Shown piece by piece: positions 42,528-54,420 of a stretch of DNA of 64,000 nt. Within the stretch, counting starts at the first letter, position 1, and each line of letters begins with the position of its first letter. This DNA is from an uncultured Acidobacteriota bacterium. GTDB taxonomy: Bacteria; Actinomycetota; Acidimicrobiia; Spongiisociales; ZC4RG35. The position numbers and the translations under genes were made by a program. Below the pieces are notes generated by a model. That model saw only the letters and a list, made by a program, of their open reading frames with translations. It was not told the origin of the DNA and did not search any database. Where the stretch lies: assembly GCA_963828465.1 (NCBI GenBank), contig CAWHEU010000018.1:224001-288000 (forward strand). The letters are read 5' to 3'.

Positions 42528-43417
42528 GCCGGGTCCTCTTCGTCCTCGTAGTGCCGGAGGAACAACTCCTCCAGAGTCGGCGGATGGCTCACAAGGCTCC
42601 GAACGCCGAGCGGGGCGAGGGTCCGGACAACTTCATCGAGGCGATCGGAGTCCACTTCGAACTCCACCTTGTGATCGTGGAGACGGAGGTCGTGAACACC
42701 GGACAGCCCGGCCACGGGAGAAGGGTCAGAGCTCAACTCGGCGCTGATGGTCGTGCGGGTCAGATGCCGCAGGTCCGAAAGCGTGCCACTCTCCACGGTC
42801 TTTCCCTTGCGAATGATGCTGACCCGGTCACAGAGGGCCTCGACCTCGGCGAGGATGTGACTGGCCAACAGCACAGTGCGCCCGGTGACTCGGTCTTCCT
42901 CGATGCATTTGCGGAACTGTTCCTCCATGAGCGGATCCAGGCCCGCAGTCGGCTCGTCGAGGATGAGGAGCTCGACATCCGAAGCCAATGCTGCGATCAG
43001 CGCCACCTTCTGACGGTTGCCCTTGGAGTACGTGCGGCCCTTCTTGGTGGGGTCGAGGTCGAATCGCTCCAGCAGCATCGCCTTCCTCGACTCGTCGAGG
43101 CCTCCCCGAAGCCGCCCGAGAAGATCGATCACCTCACCACCGGTGAGCTTGGGCCAGAGCGTCACATCCCCGGGGACATAGGCCAGCCGCCGGTGCAACT
43201 CGGTGGCGTCGGACCAGGGGTCACTTCCAAGCAGGGTTGCTGTGCCGGCATCGTGGCGGATGAGACCAAGCAGGACGCGGATGGTCGTGGTCTTGCCCGC
43301 CCCGTTGGGACCGAGGAAGCCGTGAACCTCGCCGGGGGCGACCTCCAGGTCGAGCCCGTCGAGGGCCCGGACATTCCCGAAGTTCTTGACGAGGCCGGAG
43401 ACAGCGATTGCAGACAT
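42524..43417 (-). CDS. ABC transporter ATP-binding protein
   Basis: [17 protein letters not shown] and LDEPT motifs. Confidence 0.95.
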
Positions 43418-43457
43418 GTTGTTGAGAATACAGGGATTTCACACTATTGTAAATGTT

Positions 43458-43982
43458 ATGAACGCGTCAAGACAAAGGGTCGAGGACCTCGCGGACACGA
43501 GGGACTTACTGGCATTCGTGGAGGAGTTCGCCCTGATCCTGGCGGAGACGGGCATGCCCCGGATGCCGGCCCGTGTCTTCGCCTATGCCCTCGCCGAGGA
43601 TGCAGATCGATACTCCGCGCGGGAGCTGGCCGAAGGATTGGGGGTGAGCCCGGCTGCCATTTCAGGCGCCGTCCGCTACTTGACCCACGCCGGGATGCTG
43701 GGCAAGGAACGAGTGCCCGGCTCACGCAGCGACACCTATCGCATCTATGACGACGACGTCTGGCTTGCCATCACGAGCCAGCGCACCCCGCTGCTGAGAC
43801 GATGGAAGGAGGTGCTGGAATCCGGTGTCTCTACGATCGGCCTCGATCGCCCGGGTGGGCGACGCCTGAGCGAGACGATCGCCTTCCTCGACTTCATGGA
43901 GCGAGAGCTCCCCTCGTTGATGGAGAAATGGCATCGCGAGCGCCAGTCGCTCATCGAGGTCGATGGAGCATCTCGCCTCTGA
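43458..43982 (+). CDS. GbsR/MarR family transcriptional regulator
   Basis: GMPRMPARVF and ELAEGLGVSPAAISGAVRYL (HTH); divergent from the ABC exporter. Confidence 0.88.
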   Translation: MNASRQRVEDLADTRDLLAFVEEFALILAETGMPRMPARVFAYALAEDADRYSARELAEGLGVSPAAISGAVRYLTHAGMLGKERVPGSRSDTYRIYDDDVWLAITSQRTPLLRRWKEVLESGVSTIGLDRPGGRRLSETIAFLDFMERELPSLMEKWHRERQSLIEVDGASRL

Positions 43983-44154
43983 CCGGGAACCGGATCAGAG
44001 CCCGCAACGTAATGGCCGAGAAGGCCGACGCGACGGTCGCCGATTGCGTAAGGTTCCGGCGGGCAGGATTCCGGTGGCACCGGAATCCTTTGTGCAATGG
44101 GAGGTCCGGCCGTTGGTTTGCAAACGGTTGGCCCACGAGACCGGGAGGTGAACC

Positions 44155-44430
44155 TTGGCAGTCGAGACGTCCGGTCACAGCCGGGGTAATCCCCGTCTGT
44201 ACGAGTTGATCGAGCACGCCCCCAAGGAGGGCGAGAGCCCAACGATCTGGGCGTGGCCGGAGATCGTCGACTACTTCAAGGTCGCCGGTCAGCCGGTCCA
44301 GGGGCCATGGCCTCCTCATCAGCAGCCGAGACCCGATCCGGCGGCCGAGTCCCTGCCCGTAGCCGTGCCCGACCCACAATCTTCCCCTCGTCAGCCCGAG
44401 CCCTCAGGAGAATCCGGGCCGCAGGCCTGA
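44155..44430 (+). CDS. Hypothetical protein; first ORF of the cox operon
   Basis: GGAGGTGAACC RBS before TTG; stop lies 20 nt before the coxM start; Trp/Pro-rich. Confidence 0.6.
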   Translation: MAVETSGHSRGNPRLYELIEHAPKEGESPTIWAWPEIVDYFKVAGQPVQGPWPPHQQPRPDPAAESLPVAVPDPQSSPRQPEPSGESGPQA

Positions 44431-44450
44431 AGCAAAGCAAGGAGGCAGAC

Positions 44451-45329
44451 ATCTACCCCTCTCGATTCCGCTACGAGGCACCGAGGTCGGTCGAGGAGGC
44501 CTCCGCGCTCCTGGCCGACGGCGGCGGCGAGGCCAAGATCCTGGCCGGGGGCCAGAGCCTGGTCCCGATGATCAAGCTCCGGTTCGCCTCGCCGGAGATG
44601 CTGGTCGACATCAACGAGATCCCCGACCTGGACTATCACCGTATCGACGCCGGACGGCTCCGATACACGTCGGTGCGTTGTGCCGTCACGCCGACCTGGA
44701 GCGCTCCTCTCTGCTTGCCGACTCGCCAGCCGACGATGGCTGCGGCCGCCCCCCTGGTGGCCGATCCGATCGTGCGGAATCGAGGCACGCTGGTCGGCTC
44801 GTTGTGTCACGCCGACCCTCAAGGTGATTGGGCCTCGGTGATGGTCTCCCTGGACGGTCTGGTGGTGGCACAGGGCCCCCGCGGCCGGCGCACGATCGCG
44901 GTCAAGGAGCTGGTGCACGGCCCGTTCCAGACGACCCTCGCCTATGACGAGATCGTCGTGGAAGCGATCGCCCCCGCCCCCAAGGGCACACCCGCCGGCG
45001 GCTACCTCAAGCTGGAGCGCCGCGTCGGCGATTTCGCCACCGTTGGCGTCGCAGTATCCGTCGACCGAACCGGTGACGAAGTCTCCCGGGCAGGGATCGG
45101 CCTGACCGGCGTGGGTGCCTCCACCATCTCGGCGGACGATGCCGCCCAAGTGCTGGTGGGTGGCCCACTCACAGCCGATGCGATCGCCGAAGCCGCCGCC
45201 CTTGCGGCCCAGGCAGCCCAGCCCCGCACTGATCACAGAGGGAGCGCCTCCTACAAGCGGCACCTGGTCAGCGTCTTCACCAGCAGGATCCTGACCGGGT
45301 TGATTCGATCGGAAGAGGAGGCAGCCTGA
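44451..45329 (+). CDS. coxM: Aerobic CO dehydrogenase medium (FAD) subunit
   Basis: [34 protein letters not shown] and [12 protein letters not shown] motifs; AAGGAGG RBS precedes ATC; internal compensating indels at about 44650-44727. Confidence 0.93.
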
Positions 45330-45330
45330 G

Positions 45331-45855
45331 ATGACCAGCTTGTTTCAGGAGGTCAGCCCGGGGGCGGCCGAGGAGACCCCGACCAGACAGATCACCGTGA
45401 CGGTCAACGGCGAGAGCCGAACCGCTGTAGTCGAGCCACGCCTGGTCCTCGCCCATCTGCTCCGCAATGGGTTCAACATGACCGGCACCCACACCGGGTG
45501 CGACACCTCCAACTGCGGGGCCTGTACCGTCCTCTTCGACGGCAAGCCGGTGAAGAGTTGCACCATGTTCGCCGTCCAGGCCGACGGCCACGAGGTGATG
45601 ACCGTCGAAGGACTGGCCGGCCCCAGTGAGCTGCACGCCATCCAAGAGGGGTTCAAGGAGGAGCACGGGCTCCAGTGTGGGTTCTGCACCCCCGGGATGA
45701 TGATGGCCTCCAAGGCACTGCTCGATGAGAACCCCAACCCGACCGAGGACGAGATCCGTTGGGCGTTGAGCGGCAACCTCTGCCGGTGCACCGGTTATCA
45801 GAACATCGTGAAGGCGGTCATGTGGGCGGCCCGGAAGCTGGAGGATCAGGCATGA
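45331..45855 (+). CDS. coxS: Aerobic CO dehydrogenase small (2Fe-2S) subunit
   Basis: [19 protein letters not shown] and NLCRCTGY motifs. Confidence 0.96.
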
Positions 45856-48240
45856 CGGCGGTCGACGAGATCAAGATCGGCGGCATGGGCGCCAGCAGGC
45901 GCCGTGTCGAGGACAACCGCTTCATCCGGGGCAAGGGCAACTACGTCGACGACATCGTCCTGCCCGGGATGCTGCACATGGAAATCCTGCGCAGCCCTTT
46001 GGCCCACGCCCGGATCAAGTCGATCGACGCATCGAAGGCCTGGGCCATGCCCGGCGTCCGTCTCGTCCTGACCGGCGAGACGATGGCTGCCCGCAACCTG
46101 GCCTGGATGCCGACGTTGTCGTACGACACCCAAGCCGTGCTGGCCACCGACAAGGTGCGCTTCCAGGGTCAGGAGGTCGCCTGCGTCATCGCCGACGATC
46201 CCTACATCGCCAAGGATGCTTGTGAGGCGATCGTGGTGGACTACGAGCCGCTCCCGGTGATCGTCAACCCCACCCAGTCTCTCGCCGAGGGAGCACCACT
46301 GATCCGGGACGACAAGGAGAACCAGTCGAGCAACGTGATCTACGACTGGGAGGTAGGTGACAAGGACGGAACCGACCAGGTCTTCGACCAGGCCGATGTC
46401 ATCTCCACGATCGAGCTCCACTACCCGAGATCACATCCTGCCCCGATCGAGTGCTGCGGGTCGATCGCCGATTTCAACCGGGCTACATCGAAGCTGACCG
46501 TCTACATGACGACCCAGGCGCCCCACATCATCCGGGCTGCAGTCGCCCTGGTCGCCGAGCTGCCCGAGCAGATGATCCGGATCGTCTCCCCGGACATCGG
46601 GGGCGGGTTCGGCAACAAGGTGCCGGTGTACCCGGGGTATGTGGCATCGATATTGGCGTCGATCCTCCTCGAGCGCCCGGTGAAGTGGATCGAGGACCGG
46701 ACCGGCAACCTGATCTCGACCGGCTTCGCCCGTGACATCTATCTCCACGGCGAGCTGGCGTTGCGCAAGGACGGGCGGATCCTTGGAGTGCGGATGAAGG
46801 CGACGGCGGACCACGGAGCCTTTTTCTCCGATGCCCAGCCGTCGAAGTTCAAGATCGGGTTGATGCACTCGGCGTTCGCCTGTTACGACATCCCCAACGC
46901 CCATCTCCAGGCGCGGGGGGTCTACACCAACAAGGCGCCGGGCGGTGTGGCCTACCGATGCTCTTTCCGGGTGACCGAGGCGATGTTCTTCCAGGAGCGG
47001 ATGGTCCAGGCGGCTGCCGACGACCTGGGCATGGACCAGGCCGAGTTCCGCCGCATCAACTTCGTGCGCGACGACGACTTTCCCCATCGGACCCCTTGGG
47101 GCTTCCTCACCGACTCGGGCCAGTACGGCAAGTGCCTCGATGTCGGTCTCGAAGCGATCGGCTACCAGGACTTCCTCAAGGAGAAGGAAGAGGCGGCGAA
47201 GCGGGGGCGACTCCTCGGGATCGGGATCTCCACGATGACCGAGCCGCTAGGGGCAGGCAACAGCCGTGAGTACGACATCCTGGGTATCAAGATGTTCGAC
47301 TCCGCCGAGCTCAAGATCCATATGACCGGCAAGGCGCTCCTGCGCACCGGGGCCAAGACCCAGGGTCAGGGTCACGAGACGACATGGGCTCAGATCGTGG
47401 CCCACGAGCTAGGCCTTCCCGCCGAGGACATCCTCGTGGAGGAAGGGGACACCGACACCGCGCCGTTCGGGATGGGGACCTACGCCTCCAGGAGCACGCC
47501 GGTGGCCGGCGCAGCGGTGGCCATGGTCTCACGCAAGATCCGCGCCAAGGCCCGGAAGATCGCGGCGCACCTCCTCGAGATATCCGAGGAGGACGTCGAG
47601 TGGGAGTTGGGGCGTTTCTACGTCCGCAGCCAGCCCGACCGCGGGGTCACCATCCAGGAATGTGCCATGGCGGCGTACTCCAACATGCCCGACGGGATGG
47701 AGCCCGGGTCTGGAGAATGTGGCGTATTACGACCCGCCCAACCTCACCTGGCCGTTCGCCTGCTACATCGTCACCGTGGAAGTCGACCCCGAAACCGGGG
47801 TGTGGGACGTGTTGAGGCTCGTTGCGGTCGACGATTGCGGCGTGCGGATCAACCCGATGATCGTCGAAGGCCAGATCATGGGTGGGCTCACCGAGGCCTA
47901 CGCCATGGCCAACATGCAGTTCATCACCTTCGACGAACACGGCAACTGCATCGGCTCCAACTTCACCGACTACTTGCTCCCGACCGCCTGGGAGACGCCG
48001 GGCTTCGAGCTGCACGAGGTGGTCACGCCCTGCCCCCACCACCCGATAGGCGCCAAGGGCATCGGCGAATGCGCCGCCGTTGGCGGTCCTGCCGCGTTCG
48101 TCAATGCAGTGATCGACGCCCTCAAGGGCACCGGGGTTCGCAACATCGACATGCCGTTGTTTCCCGACCGGGTCTATCAGGCGCTGCAGACTGGCCTGGA
48201 CGTGAGCGGAGCGCCGCCGGTGAGGACCGACGAGACATGA
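45852..48240 (+). CDS. coxL: Aerobic CO dehydrogenase large (Mo-Cu) subunit, form I; +1 frameshift near 47708
   Basis: Active-site loop [10 protein letters not shown], plus GGGFGNK and QGHETT; the C-terminal third ([11 protein letters not shown]...GAKGIGE) is in the next frame. Confidence 0.95.
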
Positions 48241-49226
48241 ACTCCCAGCCGGCCGACGGGTGGAGGATGATCGAGATGGCGAGCGATCTCGCCCGACAGG
48301 GCGTCGAGTTCGCTCTCGCCACCGTCGTCTGGCGCCAGGCGCCCTCCTCGGGGCATCAGGGTGCGAGGGCCATCATCACGGCCGACGGCCAGATGCACGG
48401 CTGGATCGGGGGAGCTTGTGCCGAGCCGGTGGTGATACGGGAGGCGCAGCGGGCCATGGAGGACCGCGTCCCACGGCTCATCCTCTTGGGCAACCCGGAC
48501 CAATTCGGCGAGATCCCTGACGGAATGACGTTCGTCCAGATGTCGTGCCAATCCGAAGGCGCCCTGCAGCTGTACGTCGAGCCGGTGCTCCCCAGTCCGC
48601 ACCTGGTCGTGCTGGGCCGGTCGCCGATGGCGGCCACCCTGGCCGAGCTGGCAGCCGGTGTCGGATGGCGGGCAGACCTGGTCGATGTCCCCGACTTCAA
48701 GACCGCCCACGTCGGCAACAGATCCGTCGTGGTCGTCGCCACCCAGGGGCACGGTGACGAAGAGGCGGTGGAGCAGGCGGTCACGGCCCGACCCGCCTTC
48801 GTCGGACTGGTCGCCTCACGCAAGCGGGGCGAGGCGATCCTCGGATACCTCGCCGACCGCGGCGTCCCCCAAGAGCTCTTGGATCAGGTGCGAGTCCCGG
48901 TCGGCATCGACCTCGGCCACACCTCACATCCCGAGATAGCTGTATCCGTACTGGCCGAGCTGGTCGAGCTACGAGCCAAGGGCGTCCTCGACCCCGAACC
49001 TCGGGCGGAATCTCAGGCGGCGCCAGTACAGCAGCACCATGCCGGTCATGATCACGATCACTCGGCGGCAGTCACAGCCGTCGACCTGGTTTGCGGGATG
49101 ACCGTGCCGGCCGACGAGACCAGCCGCCCCCTCGAATACGAGGGACATACCTACTACTTCTGCTGCCCGGGATGCCGGACGGCGTTCGAGAAGGAGCCCA
49201 CTGCCTACCTGACTGTTAGAGGATGA
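48237..49226 (+). CDS. CoxF/XdhC family maturation factor with His-rich linker and C-terminal YHS/TRASH domain
   Basis: GWIGGACAE, MSCQSEG and VPVGIDLG..HPEIAVS motifs; then HHAGHDHDH and DLVCGM...YYFCCPGC. Confidence 0.88.
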   Translation: MNSQPADGWRMIEMASDLARQGVEFALATVVWRQAPSSGHQGARAIITADGQMHGWIGGACAEPVVIREAQRAMEDRVPRLILLGNPDQFGEIPDGMTFVQMSCQSEGALQLYVEPVLPSPHLVVLGRSPMAATLAELAAGVGWRADLVDVPDFKTAHVGNRSVVVVATQGHGDEEAVEQAVTARPAFVGLVASRKRGEAILGYLADRGVPQELLDQVRVPVGIDLGHTSHPEIAVSVLAELVELRAKGVLDPEPRAESQAAPVQQHHAGHDHDHSAAVTAVDLVCGMTVPADETSRPLEYEGHTYYFCCPGCRTAFEKEPTAYLTVRG

Positions 49227-49227
49227 A

Positions 49228-49809
49228 ATGCTGATCAAGCACGACTTCGAGGTACCGGTTGACGTAGACAAGGTGTGGGAGTTCTGTCAGGACATCCCCC
49301 AGGTGGCCGCCTGCCTCCCGGGAGCCTCCCTCACGGACGAGATCGGCCCCGACCAGTACGCCGGGAATGTCGGGATCCGCCTCGGACCGGTCCAGATGCA
49401 ATTCGCCGGCCAGGCCGCGGTCATGGAACGCGATCACGCCAACAGGACCATCGTCGTCGACGCCTCGGGTGCCGACGAGAAGGGCCGGGGTCAGGCCAAT
49501 CTCGGCCTGACTGCCCGCCTGGTCCCCACCGCCAACGGAACGCGGGTGGAGGTCGAGCAGGACCTGCAGTTGTCGGGAGCGGCGGCGCAGTACGGAAGGG
49601 GCATGATCAGCGACGTGAGCGCAGTGATGATGCGGGATTTCGCCACCAACATGCAGACGCGGATCGATGCCTACGACCGAGGCGTGTCACCCGACCAGAT
49701 CGAGACGAAATCTGCCGGCGGCTTCGGAATCGCTATCGCGGCAGCATGGATGGCCCTCAAACGTGTGGGGCGCCGGTTCTTTCTCCCCTACGAGCCCAAC
49801 CGGATCTGA
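49228..49809 (+). CDS. coxG: CoxG (SRPBCC) protein with C-terminal membrane-associating helix
   Basis: VAACLPGA, LGPVQMQFAG and AQYGRGMI motifs; C-terminal GFGIAIAAAWMALKRVGRRFF. Confidence 0.88.
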   Translation: MLIKHDFEVPVDVDKVWEFCQDIPQVAACLPGASLTDEIGPDQYAGNVGIRLGPVQMQFAGQAAVMERDHANRTIVVDASGADEKGRGQANLGLTARLVPTANGTRVEVEQDLQLSGAAAQYGRGMISDVSAVMMRDFATNMQTRIDAYDRGVSPDQIETKSAGGFGIAIAAAWMALKRVGRRFFLPYEPNRI

Positions 49810-49819
49810 GGAGGCGCTG

Positions 49820-50074
49820 ATGACTTGGTGGTGGATTGGAAACGCGGTGCTCCTCTTGGTGGTGGTACCTGTGCTGGTCGCCCTGCTCAACAGGGTGTTG
49901 GCGGCCGTAGAGCGAATCAGAGGCGCCGCCGACAACATCCTCGCCGGGGGGGTAGCCCTAATCGGCGAGGTGGACAGGGTGCCAGAGCTCTTGGGGGTCA
50001 CCGATCAGACGATCGAAGACGTATCCACGGGCGCCGTCCGCTACGCCGGGTCCGTCGCGAAGTTGCTGGGTTGA
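49820..50074 (+). CDS. Small single-TM coiled-coil protein 1 (84 aa)
   Basis: GAGGAGG RBS; MTWWWIGNAVLLLVVVPVLVALLNRV followed by a heptad helix. Confidence 0.82.
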   Translation: MTWWWIGNAVLLLVVVPVLVALLNRVLAAVERIRGAADNILAGGVALIGEVDRVPELLGVTDQTIEDVSTGAVRYAGSVAKLLG

Positions 50075-50088
50075 GGGAGGTGTAGCCA

Positions 50089-50316
50089 ATGCCTGCTGTA
50101 GCAATCGTCACCTTGGTCCTGGCGACGCTGATCATCGCCGCCGCCGCCGTGGGTCTGATCAGGGTCATCGAGCACCTGAATGCCGCACTGAGATCCCTGC
50201 GAGCAGTCACCGGAGGTGTCGGCGTGATTGCGGACAAGACCAGCACCGTGCCGGCAGTGGTGGGCTCGGTCAACGCGAATCTCAAGCCCGTCAGCGACTT
50301 CTGCGAATCGATATAG
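50089..50316 (+). CDS. Small single-TM coiled-coil protein 2 (75 aa)
   Basis: GGAGGTG RBS; MPAVAIVTLVLATLIIAAAAVGLIRV followed by a heptad helix. Confidence 0.82.
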   Translation: MPAVAIVTLVLATLIIAAAAVGLIRVIEHLNAALRSLRAVTGGVGVIADKTSTVPAVVGSVNANLKPVSDFCESI

Positions 50317-50323
50317 GAACGAC

Positions 50324-50584
50324 ATGAGCGAACTCTTCGAAGGAAACACCGGTTGGCTGGTCGGGTACATCATCGGGATCGTCGTCGTCCTGGTGGTGGT
50401 CGCCTTGGTCGTGCCCATCCTGGTCCTGGCCAGCAAGATCGGGAGCGAGGCTCAGCTGATCGACGAGAGTCTCCAGAAGTCGGTGCAGAACACAGCGGCG
50501 TTGGCAGAACTGGGTTCCACGAACCAGATGGCGGTGAACGTCATACAAGGGCTCGAGCGGGGCCGGAAGCGACTCGGAGGATGA
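50324..50584 (+). CDS. Small single-TM coiled-coil protein 3 (86 aa)
   Basis: AGGA RBS; WLVGYIIGIVVVLVVVALVVPILVLA followed by a heptad helix; ATGA overlap with the next gene. Confidence 0.82.
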   Translation: MSELFEGNTGWLVGYIIGIVVVLVVVALVVPILVLASKIGSEAQLIDESLQKSVQNTAALAELGSTNQMAVNVIQGLERGRKRLGG

Positions 50585-50874
50585 CCATGGTCTTTGCCCT
50601 CACCGAGAACCAGGAGACCCTGTGGCAGATCGCCAACTGGGCCGGGCTCGCCGTCGTGGTTGCGGTGGCGCTCTTGCTCACCATCCTCGTGCTCCTGGTC
50701 CACAGAATCGACAAAAGGGTCAAGAACATCAAAGCGACGCTGACCCAAGCCGAGGCCAACACCGCTGATGCCGAGTTGCTGAACACCACCGCTGCCGGCG
50801 TCGACCTGGTCCTCGCCGAAGGTCTCGAGCATCATCTCTTCCTGGGCCGGGTGCTGGGGAAGGTGCGCTCATGA
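50581..50874 (+). CDS. Small single-TM coiled-coil protein 4 (97 aa)
   Basis: WAGLAVVVAVALLLTILVLLV followed by a heptad helix; ATGA overlaps on both sides. Confidence 0.82.
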   Translation: MTMVFALTENQETLWQIANWAGLAVVVAVALLLTILVLLVHRIDKRVKNIKATLTQAEANTADAELLNTTAAGVDLVLAEGLEHHLFLGRVLGKVRS

Positions 50875-51281
50875 GCAATCTGGTCCTCTTCACAGTCGTC
50901 GACATCGTCCTGCTCATCGCCGGGCTGGCGATCTATCTCTGGATCGTCGGCGGGCAGCTCACCCGGATCGCCACCAACCTCGAGGAGTGCGACGACCTGG
51001 TGCTGAAGATCGGCGGCAACGCCGCTTCGATCGAAGGCAACCTCGAACACGTGAACCGCACGGGAGGCGTCGTCGCCGGCGCGCTCCCCCTGCTTTATGG
51101 GATGGCCGAGAAGATCGTGGTCGGCGCCACCTACGACCCGGAGACGGTGCCGGAGCGAGGTCCGGCGGTACCCGCATCGGGTCGCCGCCGCTCACGTCTG
51201 CATGACGCCATCGGCTACATGCCGGACGGCCCGGGGAGCAGGGCCCACGCCCCCTTGGCCGATACGACCGAGCCTTCGTAG
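50871..51281 (+). CDS. Small single-TM coiled-coil protein 5 (136 aa, with basic/Pro-rich tail)
   Basis: LVLFTVVDIVLLIAGLAIYLWIV followed by a heptad helix; last gene before the terminator. Confidence 0.82.
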   Translation: MSNLVLFTVVDIVLLIAGLAIYLWIVGGQLTRIATNLEECDDLVLKIGGNAASIEGNLEHVNRTGGVVAGALPLLYGMAEKIVVGATYDPETVPERGPAVPASGRRRSRLHDAIGYMPDGPGSRAHAPLADTTEPS

Positions 51282-51310
51282 GTCGACGCATCCTCATCCG
51301 TACCCTTAGC

Positions 51311-51344
51311 GAGATGGGCCGGGGCCGACCCGGCCCATCTCTTT
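51311..51344 (+). terminator. Terminator-like hairpin ending the cox structural operon
   Basis: Perfect 13-bp stem GAGATGGGCCGGG-GCCGA-CCCGGCCCATCTC followed by TTT. Confidence 0.8.
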
Positions 51345-51425
51345 CCCCTCCGGATCACCTGACCGGTGTTCCGGCAACCCGTTTGTGTCCGCTTGACCCG
51401 CGACCCATGACATGAGATTTCGGCA

Positions 51426-51458
51426 AGAATCTCGTCAGCGATCCACCACGGGCGGACA
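51426..51458 (+). promoter_or_regulatory. Candidate ECF promoter, copy 1
   Basis: AGAATC-NN-GTCA-N15-CGGACA, ending 10 nt before the sigma ATG; the same motif and spacing precede the second sigma. Confidence 0.55.
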
Positions 51459-51468
51459 CTAAGGGGCA

Positions 51469-52029
51469 ATGACAACGCAGGGAGACCAGAGGTCGCGCTT
51501 CGAGGCGATCTGGCGCGAGCACCGGCATCGGGTGCTGGCCTATTGCCTGCGACGCGCTTCGTCGGCCGATGCGGAGGACGCTTGCGCCGAGACCTTTCTC
51601 GTCGTGTGGAGACGAATCGACGAGATACCGCCGGCCCCCAAGACCCTTCCTTGTCTCTATGGGATCGCCCGCAAATCGCTGTCGAATCAGACACGAGCCT
51701 TCTATCGAAGGGGGCGACTCCACACCAAGCTCACCAACCTCGGGATGGCGCCCACCGCCGACCCGATGCTTGTCGTCGTGCAGCGCGCCGACGACAAGGT
51801 CGTGACAGACGCGGTCCGACGGCTCAAGCCAGTCGACCGGGAGATAGTGATGCTCGACGTCTGGGAGGACCTGTCAAGGGCCGAGATCGCCGAGGTGCTG
51901 GGCATGACCAGAGCCGCCGTCGATCAGCGGATCCACCGCGCTTACCAAAAGCTCTCCCGGGCCTTGGAGCCCGTCCTGGAGATCAGTCCACTGAATTCCC
52001 CTCCGATCGCCGAGGAAGGAGTGACATGA
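51469..52029 (+). CDS. ECF (sigma-70 group 4) RNA polymerase sigma factor, copy 1
   Basis: DAEDACAETFLVVWRR (region 2) and LSRAEIAEVLGMT..AV..RIHRA (region 4). Confidence 0.92.
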   Translation: MTTQGDQRSRFEAIWREHRHRVLAYCLRRASSADAEDACAETFLVVWRRIDEIPPAPKTLPCLYGIARKSLSNQTRAFYRRGRLHTKLTNLGMAPTADPMLVVVQRADDKVVTDAVRRLKPVDREIVMLDVWEDLSRAEIAEVLGMTRAAVDQRIHRAYQKLSRALEPVLEISPLNSPPIAEEGVT

Positions 52030-52869
52030 CACACGATCAGATCCGCGAGATGGTCCGCCGGGTGAACCCGATCCCGGACCCGAGAACGCTCGTGGTCGAC
52101 GATGTGCCTGTCCTCACGACCCCTCTGGAGAGGAGGATGGACATGCAGACAGACAGTCGAGTGACCGACGGAGGGCTCTGGGCCGAATCGCCGGCGTGGT
52201 CCCCTGGTCGGGATCGCAACAGCGGCGGTGATCCTGATCGCAGGGCTGGTCTTTTTCCTGACCAGGGACAACACCCCGGTCGCCGAGCCGGCCCCGAATG
52301 CGACCCAGTTTCCCGCTGATGATTTGGACGCGCCACTTGCGCCCGGCGCCTACTTCGTGGACACCGACGGAAGCGAAGAGTCGTCGCTCGGAGGAACCTT
52401 CGTGATCGAAGGCGCGGGATGGTCATCGATGGGTGCAGGGCCAAAAAAGGCATTTGGCGAGGGCTATGTGGCGCTTTTGATCGTCGAGGTGGACCAGGTG
52501 TGGTCATCGGCGTGTGAGGCACCAGCGCCGATAGCAGCCGGGACGACTGCGGAGGATCTGGCAAACCAGTTCGCCGCGGCCGGCTTCACCATCCAAGAGG
52601 CCGTTTCTCCGGTGAGTGCCTTTGGCCAGTCGGGATACCACTTAGTGGTCGATGTCCCCGCCGAGTGCACTGGTACCGCCAACTTGGTCTGGGAAGGCCC
52701 CACGTTCGGGCGCTTCTACCACGACCCCGAAGGCCACGTCGTGGAGTACTGGTTCCTCGATGTGGATGACACCCCGGTCATGGTCGAGGCGAGCTGGGCC
52801 CCTTCGTCGTCCGAAGAGGAGGTGGCCGAGCTGCAGGACGTGCTCGACACCCTGGTGATCACTCCCTAG
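52026..52869 (+). CDS. Putative single-pass anti-sigma/sensor protein, copy 1 (frameshift near 52180)
   Basis: MTHDQIREMVRRVNP start, TM helix and extracellular domain ending DVLDTLVITP; full-length paralog at 53572. Confidence 0.75.
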
Positions 52870-53003: not shown

Positions 53004-53014
53004 GGAACTGATTG

Positions 53015-53575
53015 ATGACGACGACGGTGGACATGGAGCGGAGGGCTCGCTTCGAAGCGATTTGGGCCGAGCACTCGCTGAAAGTGCGCGCCTACTGCAT
53101 TCGAAGAGTCGCATCACACGACGCCGACGACGTCGCTGCCGAGATATTCCTGGTGGTATGGCGACGCATCGACGAGATTCCGCCGCCGCCCAAGACCCTC
53201 CTCTACATCTACGGCATCGCGGGCAAGGTGGTCTCCAATCACACCCGATCTTTTCGTCGTAGATCACGTCTCGACGAGAAGCTGCGCAACCTGGGCGTTG
53301 CTCCCCCCGTCGACCCGGCGTTCCTCGTCGTCCAGAGCTCCGACGACGCCGAAGTCGCAGCGGCAGTTCGGAACCTGAGCCGACGAGACCGCGAGATCGT
53401 GATGCTCTACGCCTGGGAGGATCTGCCGCGGAACGACATCGCCGAGATCATGGGCATGAGCAGGTCCGCGGTCGACCAGAGAATCCACCGTTCCTATCAG
53501 AGACTCGCTCGGGCTCTCCAGCCCCTCATCAATCCGACCCCTTCCCCTCCGGTCGCCGAGGAAGGAGCGACATGA
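53015..53575 (+). CDS. ECF sigma factor, copy 2
   Basis: DADDVAAEIFLVVWRR and IAEIMGMSRSAVDQRIHRS motifs; clear paralog of copy 1. Confidence 0.92.
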   Translation: MTTTVDMERRARFEAIWAEHSLKVRAYCIRRVASHDADDVAAEIFLVVWRRIDEIPPPPKTLLYIYGIAGKVVSNHTRSFRRRSRLDEKLRNLGVAPPVDPAFLVVQSSDDAEVAAAVRNLSRRDREIVMLYAWEDLPRNDIAEIMGMSRSAVDQRIHRSYQRLARALQPLINPTPSPPVAEEGAT

Positions 53576-54420
53576 CACACGATCAGATCGATCGCATCGT
53601 CCGCAGGGCAAATCCGCTGTCGGACCCGACTGCCCTCGAGCCGGTGGATGTGCCTGTCCTCACGACACCTCTCGAGAGGGGGCTGGAAATGCAGATCGAT
53701 GACAGACCCGGGACTGAGGTCCCAGCGGACCGGAATCGCCGGCGTGGTCCCCTGGTCGGGATCGCGACGGCGGCAGTGATCCTGATCGCAGGGCTCGTCT
53801 TGTTCCTAACCCGGGACAACACCCCCGTGGCCGAGCCGGCCCCGAATGCCACTGAACTGACGAGCGAGTTTCAGCCCCTCGCCCCAGGCGCCTACTACGC
53901 CGATACCGACGGCAACGAGGAGACGGCGACTCGTGGCACCTTCGTCATCGAAGGTGACGGGTGGACGGACGTGTTTTCATCCGGGGCGCTAAAGGAGGGT
54001 GGCGGCGAGCACGTTGTTGCGCTTTTGGTCGTCGAGGTCGACGACGTGTGGTCATCGGTATGTGAGTCGACCGCTCCGGTGGCGGCGGGGACGACGGCGG
54101 CCGATCTGGCCAACCAGTTCACCACCAATGGATTGACGGTCCGGGAGGCGTTGGCGCCGGTCAATGCCTTCGGCCACAACGGGTACCACCTGGTCGGAGA
54201 GGTGCCTGCCGGGTGCGGCGGTTCCGGCAAACCGGTCTGGACGGGCCCCGTTTTCGCCCACGAGCGTACGTACGACTCAGGCGATATGGTGGAATACTGG
54301 TTCCTCGATGTGGAGGGCACCCCGGTCATGATCGAGGTGAGTTGGGCGCCTGGATCGTCACCGGAGGAGGACGTGATCGAGTTGCAGGACGTTCTCGACA
54401 CCCTGGTGATCACTCCCTAG
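53572..54420 (+). CDS. Putative single-pass anti-sigma/sensor protein, copy 2
   Basis: ATGA overlap with the sigma gene; short cytoplasmic N-terminus, RRR plus TM helix, extracellular domain with two Cys. Confidence 0.8.
   Translation: MTHDQIDRIVRRANPLSDPTALEPVDVPVLTTPLERGLEMQIDDRPGTEVPADRNRRRGPLVGIATAAVILIAGLVLFLTRDNTPVAEPAPNATELTSEFQPLAPGAYYADTDGNEETATRGTFVIEGDGWTDVFSSGALKEGGGEHVVALLVVEVDDVWSSVCESTAPVAAGTTAADLANQFTTNGLTVREALAPVNAFGHNGYHLVGEVPAGCGGSGKPVWTGPVFAHERTYDSGDMVEYWFLDVEGTPVMIEVSWAPGSSPEEDVIELQDVLDTLVITP

Follow-up and report, generated by a model that had tools for sequence, protein, structure and literature searches.

The window analysed here, a stretch of 64,000 nucleotides (G000:C18:224001-288000) from a genome of 3.07 Mb (29 contigs, 92% complete), contains an operon for a form I carbon monoxide dehydrogenase (CODH), in which coxG is followed by five small genes, S1 to S5. 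An earlier note on this DNA had described five open reading frames (ORFs) of 84, 75, 86, 97 and 136 amino acids (aa) after coxG, and all five are indeed there, in place and with these lengths. Judged by their likeness to ORFs of clusters with the HydS-HydL layout (hydrogenases being grouped here by gene layout, not by class), the five genes of this CODH operon are a HylTM-type set, which has hitherto been described only in the clusters of group 1l [NiFe]-hydrogenases, and they probably provide a membrane stalk for the CODH.

In group 1l clusters the genes are arranged as HylS-HylTM1-5-HylL, with five small proteins, each having one transmembrane (TM) helix, encoded between the subunit genes (PMC9561532). 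In the AlphaFold model of the HylTM helices all five intertwine into a tube-like scaffold, which anchors the enzyme to the membrane (PMC13554262). The five short TM ORFs of group 1l operons, which the earlier note had mentioned, match what these papers describe.

An alignment of the hydrogenase large subunit was used to collect the best 80 hydrogenase loci from species-representative genomes, including Rubrobacteraceae, Chloroflexota, Acidobacteriota, Gemmatimonadota, Methylomirabilota, Verrucomicrobiota, Planctomycetota and Armatimonadota; Hymenobacter roseosalivarius, the source of the named HylTM1-5 proteins, is not represented in this set. Hidden Markov models (HMMs) of S1-S5, built from cox-linked sequences of the genus only, matched small ORFs in 68 of the 80 loci (E <= 0.01 at Z = 100,000). 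The matched ORFs were mostly located between HydS and HydL, in the order S3, S4, (S5), S1, S2; the 12 loci without a match were mostly on short contigs missing the upstream region. The distance between HydS and HydL was 1.0-2.2 kb in 44 loci, and from the 14 of these in which five TM ORFs were called a profile was built for each position. Among the window proteins the profiles of positions 1, 2, 4 and 5 recognized S3, S4, S1 and S2, respectively (E-values in Table 1), and that of position 2 also matched S3 (8.8e-6). S5 was tied to position 3 indirectly. It matches (7.6e-6 and 6.5e-6) the third gene of the trios of S3-, S4- and S5-like genes which, in G031 and G050, are divergent from the genes of the small and large [NiFe]-hydrogenase subunits, and the type-restricted iteration described below groups the position-3 ORFs with S5. 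The type correspondence is that S3, S4, S5, S1 and S2 represent positions 1 to 5 of the hydrogenase arrays.

These profile comparisons show that each type of the cox-linked S1-S5 has its homolog among the small ORFs of [NiFe]-hydrogenase clusters, and because of this homology the module is regarded as common to both trace-gas enzymes. The suggestion that it might be shared among trace-gas oxidizing enzymes, made in the earlier note, is thus supported by homology as well as by synteny, and recognition was reciprocal, with matches to hydrogenase TM ORFs obtained in both directions for S1-S4. Six genomes (G173, G328, G264, G302, G397 and G341) have S-type ORFs in exactly the HydS-small ORFs-HydL layout. 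The best solved match of the linked hydrogenase subunits was the group 1h enzyme 5AA5 (E 2.6e-141 and 3.7e-154). When the source genome, 92% complete as it is, was searched by tblastn, neither HydS nor HydL was found, and Cox queries found the operon and several paralogs. Since the genome is without HydS and HydL, the array can serve here only the CODH or another, unrecognized partner.

Conservation, paralogy and shape of the five proteins

Relatives were screened with S4 in 60 genomes, 30 of the same genus and 30 of other genera. S4 matches were obtained in 14 of the same-genus genomes, all of which carry the five genes in the same order, and in two of the other-genus genomes, G031 and G050. 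CoxL was at least 93% identical in 17 of the 30 same-genus genomes and about 64% identical in eight, and the remaining five had weaker CoxL matches (E 4.8e-73 to 2.3e-105); this tally includes the unpublished genomes G018, G027, G028, G039 and G050. Fourteen of the 17 genomes with a close CoxL had the full array, G030 had S1 and S2, truncated at the contig end, and the contigs of G016 and G017 stop before an array could begin. The array was present, therefore, in 15 of 15 assessable genomes of this CoxL type, and the S4 search gave no match in the 13 same-genus genomes without a close CoxL. The five-gene set was also found in three genomes of other families or classes. Compared with the orthologs of G007, the dN/dS values of S1-S5 were 0.11-0.27. 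S1-S5 are real, conserved genes.

Metatranscriptome contigs from four runs (three studies), with 90-99% likeness, covered parts of all five ORFs. RNA contigs also bridged the junctions coxG-S1, S1-S2, S2-S3, S3-S4 and S4-S5, reaching 31 letters or more into each side, but these contigs come from relatives, RNA libraries can contain DNA, and a contig spanning two genes does not show a single transcript. This coverage is weakly consistent with expression of S1-S5.

The five proteins had been described in the earlier note as diverged paralogs. Within a single genome this relationship is weak: by within-genome BLASTP and shallow genus profiles only S3 and S4 appeared related (88%, E 3e-6), the other nine pairs being below 5%, and the paralogy of all five emerged only after homologs from other genomes had been added. 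In iterated searches of the pooled ORFs S1, S3 and S4 were interlinked at E <= 1e-14 and S2 was linked to S5 at E <= 1e-13; the S3 and S4 profiles recognized S2 as well. To check for drift towards hydrophobic segments, the final profiles were run against the 24,532 six-frame ORFs of the source genome, and matched only the five array ORFs. When the iteration was restricted by type, each type came to 105-121 members. Gene order 34512 was the most frequent, with 26 loci, and five loci had the order 12345. In profile-profile comparisons of the deep alignments all ten pairs reached 90.5-99.7% probability, scores that over-extended ORFs in these alignments may inflate. On the strength of the deep profiles, which link all five and reveal the mutual similarity that had been proposed as a check, the five proteins are ancient paralogs of one superfamily, one per conserved type. 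Longer ORFs (~200-270 aa) beside the arrays at L066, L067, L069, L071, L079 and L080 also score with S1- or S5-type profiles; these may be larger family members, fusions or over-called ORFs.

Near the N-terminus of each of the five proteins there is a single window of 19 residues that is strongly hydrophobic (mean Kyte-Doolittle value 2.6-3.5). In all five there is no K or R before the hydrophobic window and there are 1-5 within the 15 residues after it, from which an N-out/C-in topology is predicted, with the C-terminal part on the cytoplasmic (CODH) side. The AlphaFold2 monomer of S3 is one unbroken helix (residues 9-83, pLDDT 77.6) and that of S5 is one unbroken helix (residues 2-86) followed by a low-confidence tail (pLDDT 77.2). 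Together with the hydropathy windows, these models bear out the N-terminal TM helix and subsequent soluble helix noticed before. The 23-residue segments that had been aligned by their small or hydrophobic register positions were located at residues 32, 32, 38, 42 and 32 of S1-S5, and their register matches a nearly invariant Ile that follows the membrane helix in the deep alignments. In the cytoplasmic helices of all five types the column-mean hydrophobicity has a period of 3.4-3.55, the observed power being reached by 0 or 1 of 1000 column shuffles per type. The membrane helix of each protein continues as a cytoplasmic helix of 50-60 residues with heptad-like periodicity.

In a search of Pfam and NCBIfam, which also served for the comparison with the classical membrane Cox accessory proteins of Oligotropha (CoxB, CoxC, CoxH and CoxK), S1-S5 matched no model at its cut-off. 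PDB profile searches matched no natural homolog, and a search of the ESM Atlas returned unannotated actinobacterial clusters only. S3 is the best conserved of the five. The S3-type alignment (36 rows) is gap-free across the membrane and cytoplasmic helices, with Ala36 and Thr57 invariant, Trp11, Ile39, Asn67 and Ala70 nearly so, and motifs around Thr57 and Asn67. When the S3-type profile was searched against 5.8 billion proteins (8000 candidates scored, 120 matches listed), at least 2009 proteins matched at E <= 1e-5, the best at ~1e-30. None of the 120 matches listed carried a Pfam domain, and those listed with a source name were called 'hypothetical protein', except for one with the JGI label 'Tfp pilus assembly protein PilN'.

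The operon, the spread of the arrays and their evolution

The features of the operon are collected in Table 1. AYRCSFR is present in the CoxL translation, a loop (AYRCSFR or AYXCSFR at the active site) that we take to be the mark of form I, and the Pfam domains of CoxM, CoxS, CoxL and CoxG were all found. S1-S5 are on the same strand as the enzyme genes, overlap or abut, and no terminator lies in between. The gaps are 10 nt (coxG-S1), 14 nt (S1-S2) and 7 nt (S2-S3), and S3/S4 and S4/S5 overlap by ATGA. GGAGG or GGGAGG precedes S1 and S2 and a weak AGGA precedes S3, in agreement with the ribosome-binding site (RBS) or ATGA overlap that had been claimed for each ORF. The 13-bp hairpin reported after S5 was also recovered: none of 200 shuffles folded equally well, the core stem was found by a separate scan, too, and the hairpin is likely to be the operon terminator. 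An Rfam scan of positions 43000-52500 gave no match. The start of coxM is uncertain, as the RBS AAGGAGG is followed by an ATC codon and the longest coxM ORF starts at 44253.

Table 1. Genes and terminator hairpin of the cox operon (positions in the window)
Feature	Position	Strand	Type or remark	Support
coxM, FAD-binding medium subunit	44451..45329	+	start uncertain	Pfam FAD_binding_5 8.7e-34, CO_deh_flav_C 1.7e-22
coxS, [2Fe-2S] small subunit	45331..45855	+		Pfam Fer2_2 5.6e-34, Fer2
coxL, form I Mo-Cu CODH large subunit, AYRCSFR loop	45852..48240	+	two reading frames	Pfam, first piece: Ald_Xan_dh_C, MoCoBD_1, MoCoBD_2; second piece: remainder of MoCoBD_2
xdhC/coxI-like maturation gene fused to C-terminal YHS/TRASH metal-binding domain	48237..49226	+		Pfam XdhC_CoxI 1.3e-16, XdhC_C 1.9e-22, YHS 5.5e-13
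coxG, SRPBCC quinone-binding protein	49228..49809	+		Pfam COXG 1.4e-15
S1, 84 aa, single-pass membrane protein	49820..50074	+	position 4 type	TM4 profile 6.1e-8
S2, 75 aa	50089..50316	+	position 5 type, subfamily B with S5	TM5 profile 5.3e-6
S3, 86 aa	50324..50584	+	position 1 type, best conserved	TM1 profile 3.2e-9
S4, 97 aa	50581..50874	+	position 2 type, ATGA overlap with S3	TM2 profile 5.4e-5
S5, 136 aa	50871..51281	+	position 3 type, ATGA overlap with S4	C-terminal extension
13-bp GC-rich hairpin, then UUUCCCC	51311..51341	+	likely terminator	-30.6 kcal/mol, z -4.24

The reading frame of coxL is interrupted, which the earlier note had not mentioned. Relative to the orthologs of G015 and G023, there is a 1-nt insertion near 47,700-47,711 that shifts the frame; the last 190 residues of CoxL have to be read from a different frame (47662-48240), and the original one stays open into xdhC. 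The extra base reflects an assembly error or else a recent break of the gene.

Several observations concern the surroundings of the operon. The coxMSL-xdhC-coxG operon is without coxD/E/F-like genes, and the YHS/TRASH domain of the XdhC/CoxI-like protein is possibly a copper-handling addition for the Mo-Cu site. Upstream of coxM, and in the same orientation, is a gene for a MarR-family regulator (43386-43982), which possibly regulates the cox operon; promoter-like sites are found at ~43422-43475. Downstream, a tandemly duplicated ECF sigma factor gene occupies 51469-52869 and 53012-54420, where each copy is followed by an ORF of 213-282 aa that has no Pfam match, the two ORFs sharing long identical stretches. 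An anti-sigma identity of S1-S5 was considered and rejected: no anti-sigma domain was found with Pfam or NCBIfam, and S5 is separated by the hairpin from the sigma gene. Outside the window, the same contig encodes a second paralog of CoxG (32% identity; G000:C18:364066-364590), and further CoxL/M/S-like sets of the source genome are on contigs C22, C1, C20, C25 and C26.

The distribution of the family was determined by searching 400 phylum-wide genomes with an S3 profile of six rows, one of which comes from the unpublished G050, and 36 of the genomes had it. Neighbourhoods of up to ~9 kb on each side were examined in 31 of the 36; the five omitted had weak matches only (E >= 1.5e-4). Hydrogenase-linked arrays were present in 18 of the 31 genomes (G077, G258, G179, G311, G108, G426, G406, G206, G395, G248, G450, G281, G397, G341, G264, G302, G173 and G328), and cox-linked arrays, in two architectures, in eight. 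The survey of homolog neighbourhoods that had been proposed earlier thus shows linkage to either enzyme in 26 of 31 genomes. G050, G108, G179 and G206 are unpublished; when G108, G179 and G206 are subtracted, the counts become 15 with hydrogenase, eight with cox and five with neither (n = 28). The main conclusions also rest on named public records.

The first cox architecture, coxMSL-xdhC-coxG-S1-S2-S3-S4-S5, was found in the window and in G270, G436 and G439. In the second, an S3-S4-S5-S1-S2 array is near coxMSL (G294, G445, G203, G268 and G216). Of these, G294, G445 and G203 have the array immediately upstream, with coxG ahead of it in G294, and in G216 and G268 it is ~5-6 kb away from coxM. 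G216 has four separate arrays (L078, L080, L084 and L086), one of them near cox genes.

A quick maximum-likelihood tree was made from the concatenated types of 83 loci with at least four types; it is unrooted and may include rows from two unpublished genomes, G108 and G206. One clade (SH-aLRT 100) united the window with the three other arrays of the first cox architecture, and the second cox architecture together with one G216 orphan locus formed a separate one (100). Both cox clades fell within an 18-row clade (97) with actinobacterial arrays whose hydrogenase subunit genes are adjacent, and this clade was distinct from the 63 'between-subunits' arrays. As a long-branch join was flagged and the tree is unrooted, it is compatible with one or two recruitments and with either direction. 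The hydrogenase context is nevertheless the likelier source of the cox-linked arrays, since it is far more widely spread. The coxMSL-xdhC-coxG-S1-5 block appears to be horizontally mobile, because CoxL is 85-89% identical in G436, G270 (another family) and G439 (another class), compared with the ~64% seen in the eight array-less genomes of the same genus.

A putative membrane stalk and its alternatives

The explanation that we favour, and hold to be reasonably probable, is that S1-S5 are a CODH-linked copy of HylTM1-5 and form a membrane stalk that holds CoxMSL, feeding CO electrons to menaquinone. As suggested by the sequences, one copy each of S1-S5 would assemble into a five-helix bundle or tube rooted in the membrane, which would project ~7-9 nm into the cytoplasm. 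This stalk would hold the soluble CoxMSL at the membrane, alone or through CoxG, and CO electrons would reach menaquinone, perhaps via a hydrophobic quinone path leading out of the bilayer. A 1:1:1:1:1 bundle fits the presence of five distinct chains in equal numbers and fixed order, their heptad helices, and the translational coupling of the genes, coxG included. Docking of CoxMSL and/or CoxG combined with quinone access is the most likely role, taking into account the precedent of HucM/Ncp and the extraction of menaquinone by CoxG. The pentameric tube, the docking of CODH or CoxG, and the quinone or electron transfer by S1-S5 are inferred from synteny, the 1:1:1:1:1 conservation of the five types, the heptad pattern and the published AlphaFold model of the distant hydrogenase homologs. 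A complex prediction for S3, S4, S5(1-100) and S1, with S1 as the partner (four chains, without controls), gave ipSAE values of 0.18 and 0.24, the mark being 0.32, and speaks neither for nor against binding.

Two parts of the first cox architecture might adapt the stalk to the enzyme. The C-terminal extension of S5, with a conserved basic motif, occurs only in cox-linked arrays of this architecture, and the position-3 proteins of hydrogenase clusters are without it. In a comparison of the CoxG C-termini of the window, L055, L056, L057, L073 and L076, a conserved amphipathic helix, rich in Arg and closing with RRFF-(L/M)-PY, forms the end of CoxG in the first architecture; this C-terminus is not clearly a hydrophobic anchor, and CoxG of the second architecture, with 143-146 aa, has no extension. 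The S5 tail and the Arg-rich helix of CoxG could, speculatively, be adaptors between stalk and enzyme.

Several observations weigh against a membrane stalk of the CODH. A form-I-like CoxL (E <= 1e-170) was found in 83 of the 400 phylum genomes (a tally that includes the unpublished G078, G148, G179, G296 and G325), and as the array was near cox in eight of these 83, the module is dispensable for most CODHs. In Mycobacterium smegmatis CoxG alone suffices (PMC12202499). Five of the 31 examined genomes have an array with neither enzyme nearby (G271, on a 4.5-kb contig, G219, G309, G351 and G412), and in G309 a form-I-like CoxL and the array are on different contigs. The three other arrays of G216 likewise have neither enzyme within ~9 kb; Pfam scans of the neighbours of orphan arrays (L070, L072, L078, L084 and L086) revealed no candidate partner oxidoreductase. 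The position-3 profile, built from the 14 loci, gave no match, S5 included. Finally, because coxL is frameshifted, the CODH may be broken in the source genome, unless the extra base is an assembly error.

The fact that most form I CODH operons work without the array would also agree with S1-S5 being a membrane complex for assembly, maturation or localization of the enzyme, holding for example the apo-enzyme during cofactor insertion, rather than a permanent stalk or electron path. S1-S5 follow the xdhC/coxI-YHS gene in the operon, and hydrogenase clusters with relatives of the five proteins carry maturation genes as well (PMC9561532). We judge such a role unlikely, however. The occurrence of five types in equal numbers and fixed order, with long amphipathic helices, points to a stoichiometric structural assembly, the group 1l ORFs sit between the genes of both structural subunits, and a maturation role shared by two enzymes whose cofactors, Mo-Cu and Ni-Fe, are unrelated is hard to picture.

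The arrays without an enzyme within ~9 kb, in five genomes and at three G216 loci, as well as the apparent horizontal movement of cox operon and array as a block, could be explained also by an independent module of small membrane proteins, serving for instance membrane organization or stress, that travels with trace-gas islands without taking a direct part in the oxidation of CO. This is quite improbable, considering that the association arose in at least two cox gene orders and two hydrogenase layouts, that array and enzyme genes share a strand and overlap or adjoin each other without an intervening terminator, and that 26 of the 31 genomes have enzyme-linked arrays.

That S1-S5 are regulatory single-pass proteins (anti-sigma-like or sensors) tied to the downstream ECF sigma genes, the first of which starts 188 nt after S5, is very hard to believe in spite of a sub-threshold match of S4 to the NCBIfam model 'anti-sigma factor' NF052375 (E 0.11, 12.5 bits against a cut-off of 100), since the hairpin separates S5 from the sigma unit, each of the tandem sigma genes has a downstream partner ORF of its own, and no sigma gene stood out beside the arrays of other genomes, where the scans sought only Cox, hydrogenase and S-type proteins.

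The presence of the set in a CODH operon makes the device testable in a second enzyme system, whose electron exit site (the FAD in CoxM) and partner, CoxG, are already understood in structural terms. It also gives a name and a context to a large unannotated family, with at least 2009 protein clusters for one type, and it suggests that CODH operons fall into classes that differ in the hardware for coupling to the membrane, with possible consequences for affinity, regulation and ecology. A wider idea, doubtful but worth stating, is that S1-S5/HylTM are an enzyme-agnostic hetero-pentameric quinone conduit, recruited independently by [NiFe]-hydrogenases of the 1l/1m kind, by Mo-Cu CODH in two gene orders and possibly by partners at the orphan loci. 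If this were true, a hydrophobic lumen would lift menaquinone by several nm, the conduit would correspond, embedded in the membrane, to the peripheral tubes of HucM/Ncp, and 'quinone chimneys' for high-affinity trace-gas respiration would have evolved convergently.

Comparison with known systems

The HylTM set and S1-S5 are alike in consisting of five tandem small proteins with one membrane helix each, and they recognize each other's profiles through the ORFs between HydS and HydL, in five types with one member per array. They differ in that S1-S5 are encoded in a Mo-Cu CODH operon, downstream of coxG, in a genome without such a hydrogenase, and that their gene order is circularly permuted relative to HylTM (types 4, 5, 1, 2, 3). 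S5 of the window is without an insertion that is present in the hydrogenase position-3 type and has the cox-specific C-terminal tail. The identity of S1-S5 to hydrogenase-linked members is ~14-35%. The name 'HylTM' was met in three relevant works, all on hydrogenases, and no description of the set in a CODH operon was found (supplements and subscription journals were outside the scope of this search).

Group 1m clusters have adjacent subunit genes and two single-TM proteins of 82-92 aa (Ray et al. 2022, PMC9561532). Actinobacterial loci found here resemble them in having adjacent HydS and HydL genes, with an S1-S2 pair (~83-87 aa) a few kb away and an S3-S4-S5 trio divergent from hydS. Such adjacent-subunit actinobacterial arrays are the nearest relatives of the cox-linked arrays in the tree. 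In contrast to these loci, the paper, in its available part, gives two small proteins, not five, and no link to CODH.

The S5-type profile matches de novo designed coiled-coil bundles and barrels (PDB 8a3k, 8qae, 8qkd and others; E 2.9e-9 to 8e-4) in their heptad pattern. As the sequences of these proteins were designed, the match is one of pattern and not of homology, and it is consistent with coiled-coil packing.

HucM and Ncp are alpha-helical tubes with a hydrophobic lining that connect a soluble respiratory enzyme with the membrane and let menaquinone enter (PMC10017518, PMC13524794). They are peripheral homo-tetramers with no membrane-spanning helix, whereas S1-S5 are five different chains with a true membrane helix each. 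The relationship to HucM that was raised in the earlier note was not borne out: none of the five proteins had a DUF1641 match in Pfam at E <= 1, so they are not relatives of HucM, and the comparison holds as an analogy only.

CoxG has the established role of supplying CoxM with menaquinone taken from the membrane (Kropp et al. 2025, PMC12202499); the available text of this paper does not mention such small proteins. CoxG is encoded in the same operon as S1-S5, directly upstream, but is unrelated to them in fold and family, and since it is also present here, the array would add to or adapt CoxG and not replace it.

A central question of aerotrophy is by what route electrons travel from the soluble trace-gas enzymes of the cytoplasm to the quinones of the membrane. 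The answers known or proposed are the HucM tube for Huc, the CoxG shuttle for Mo-CODH and the predicted five-helix HylTM scaffold for the very widespread group 1l hydrogenase. The presence of a HylTM-type set in a subset of form I operons, in two gene orders and in a genome without a hydrogenase, suggests that this last device is not a hydrogenase-specific subunit but a transferable means of docking or quinone access.

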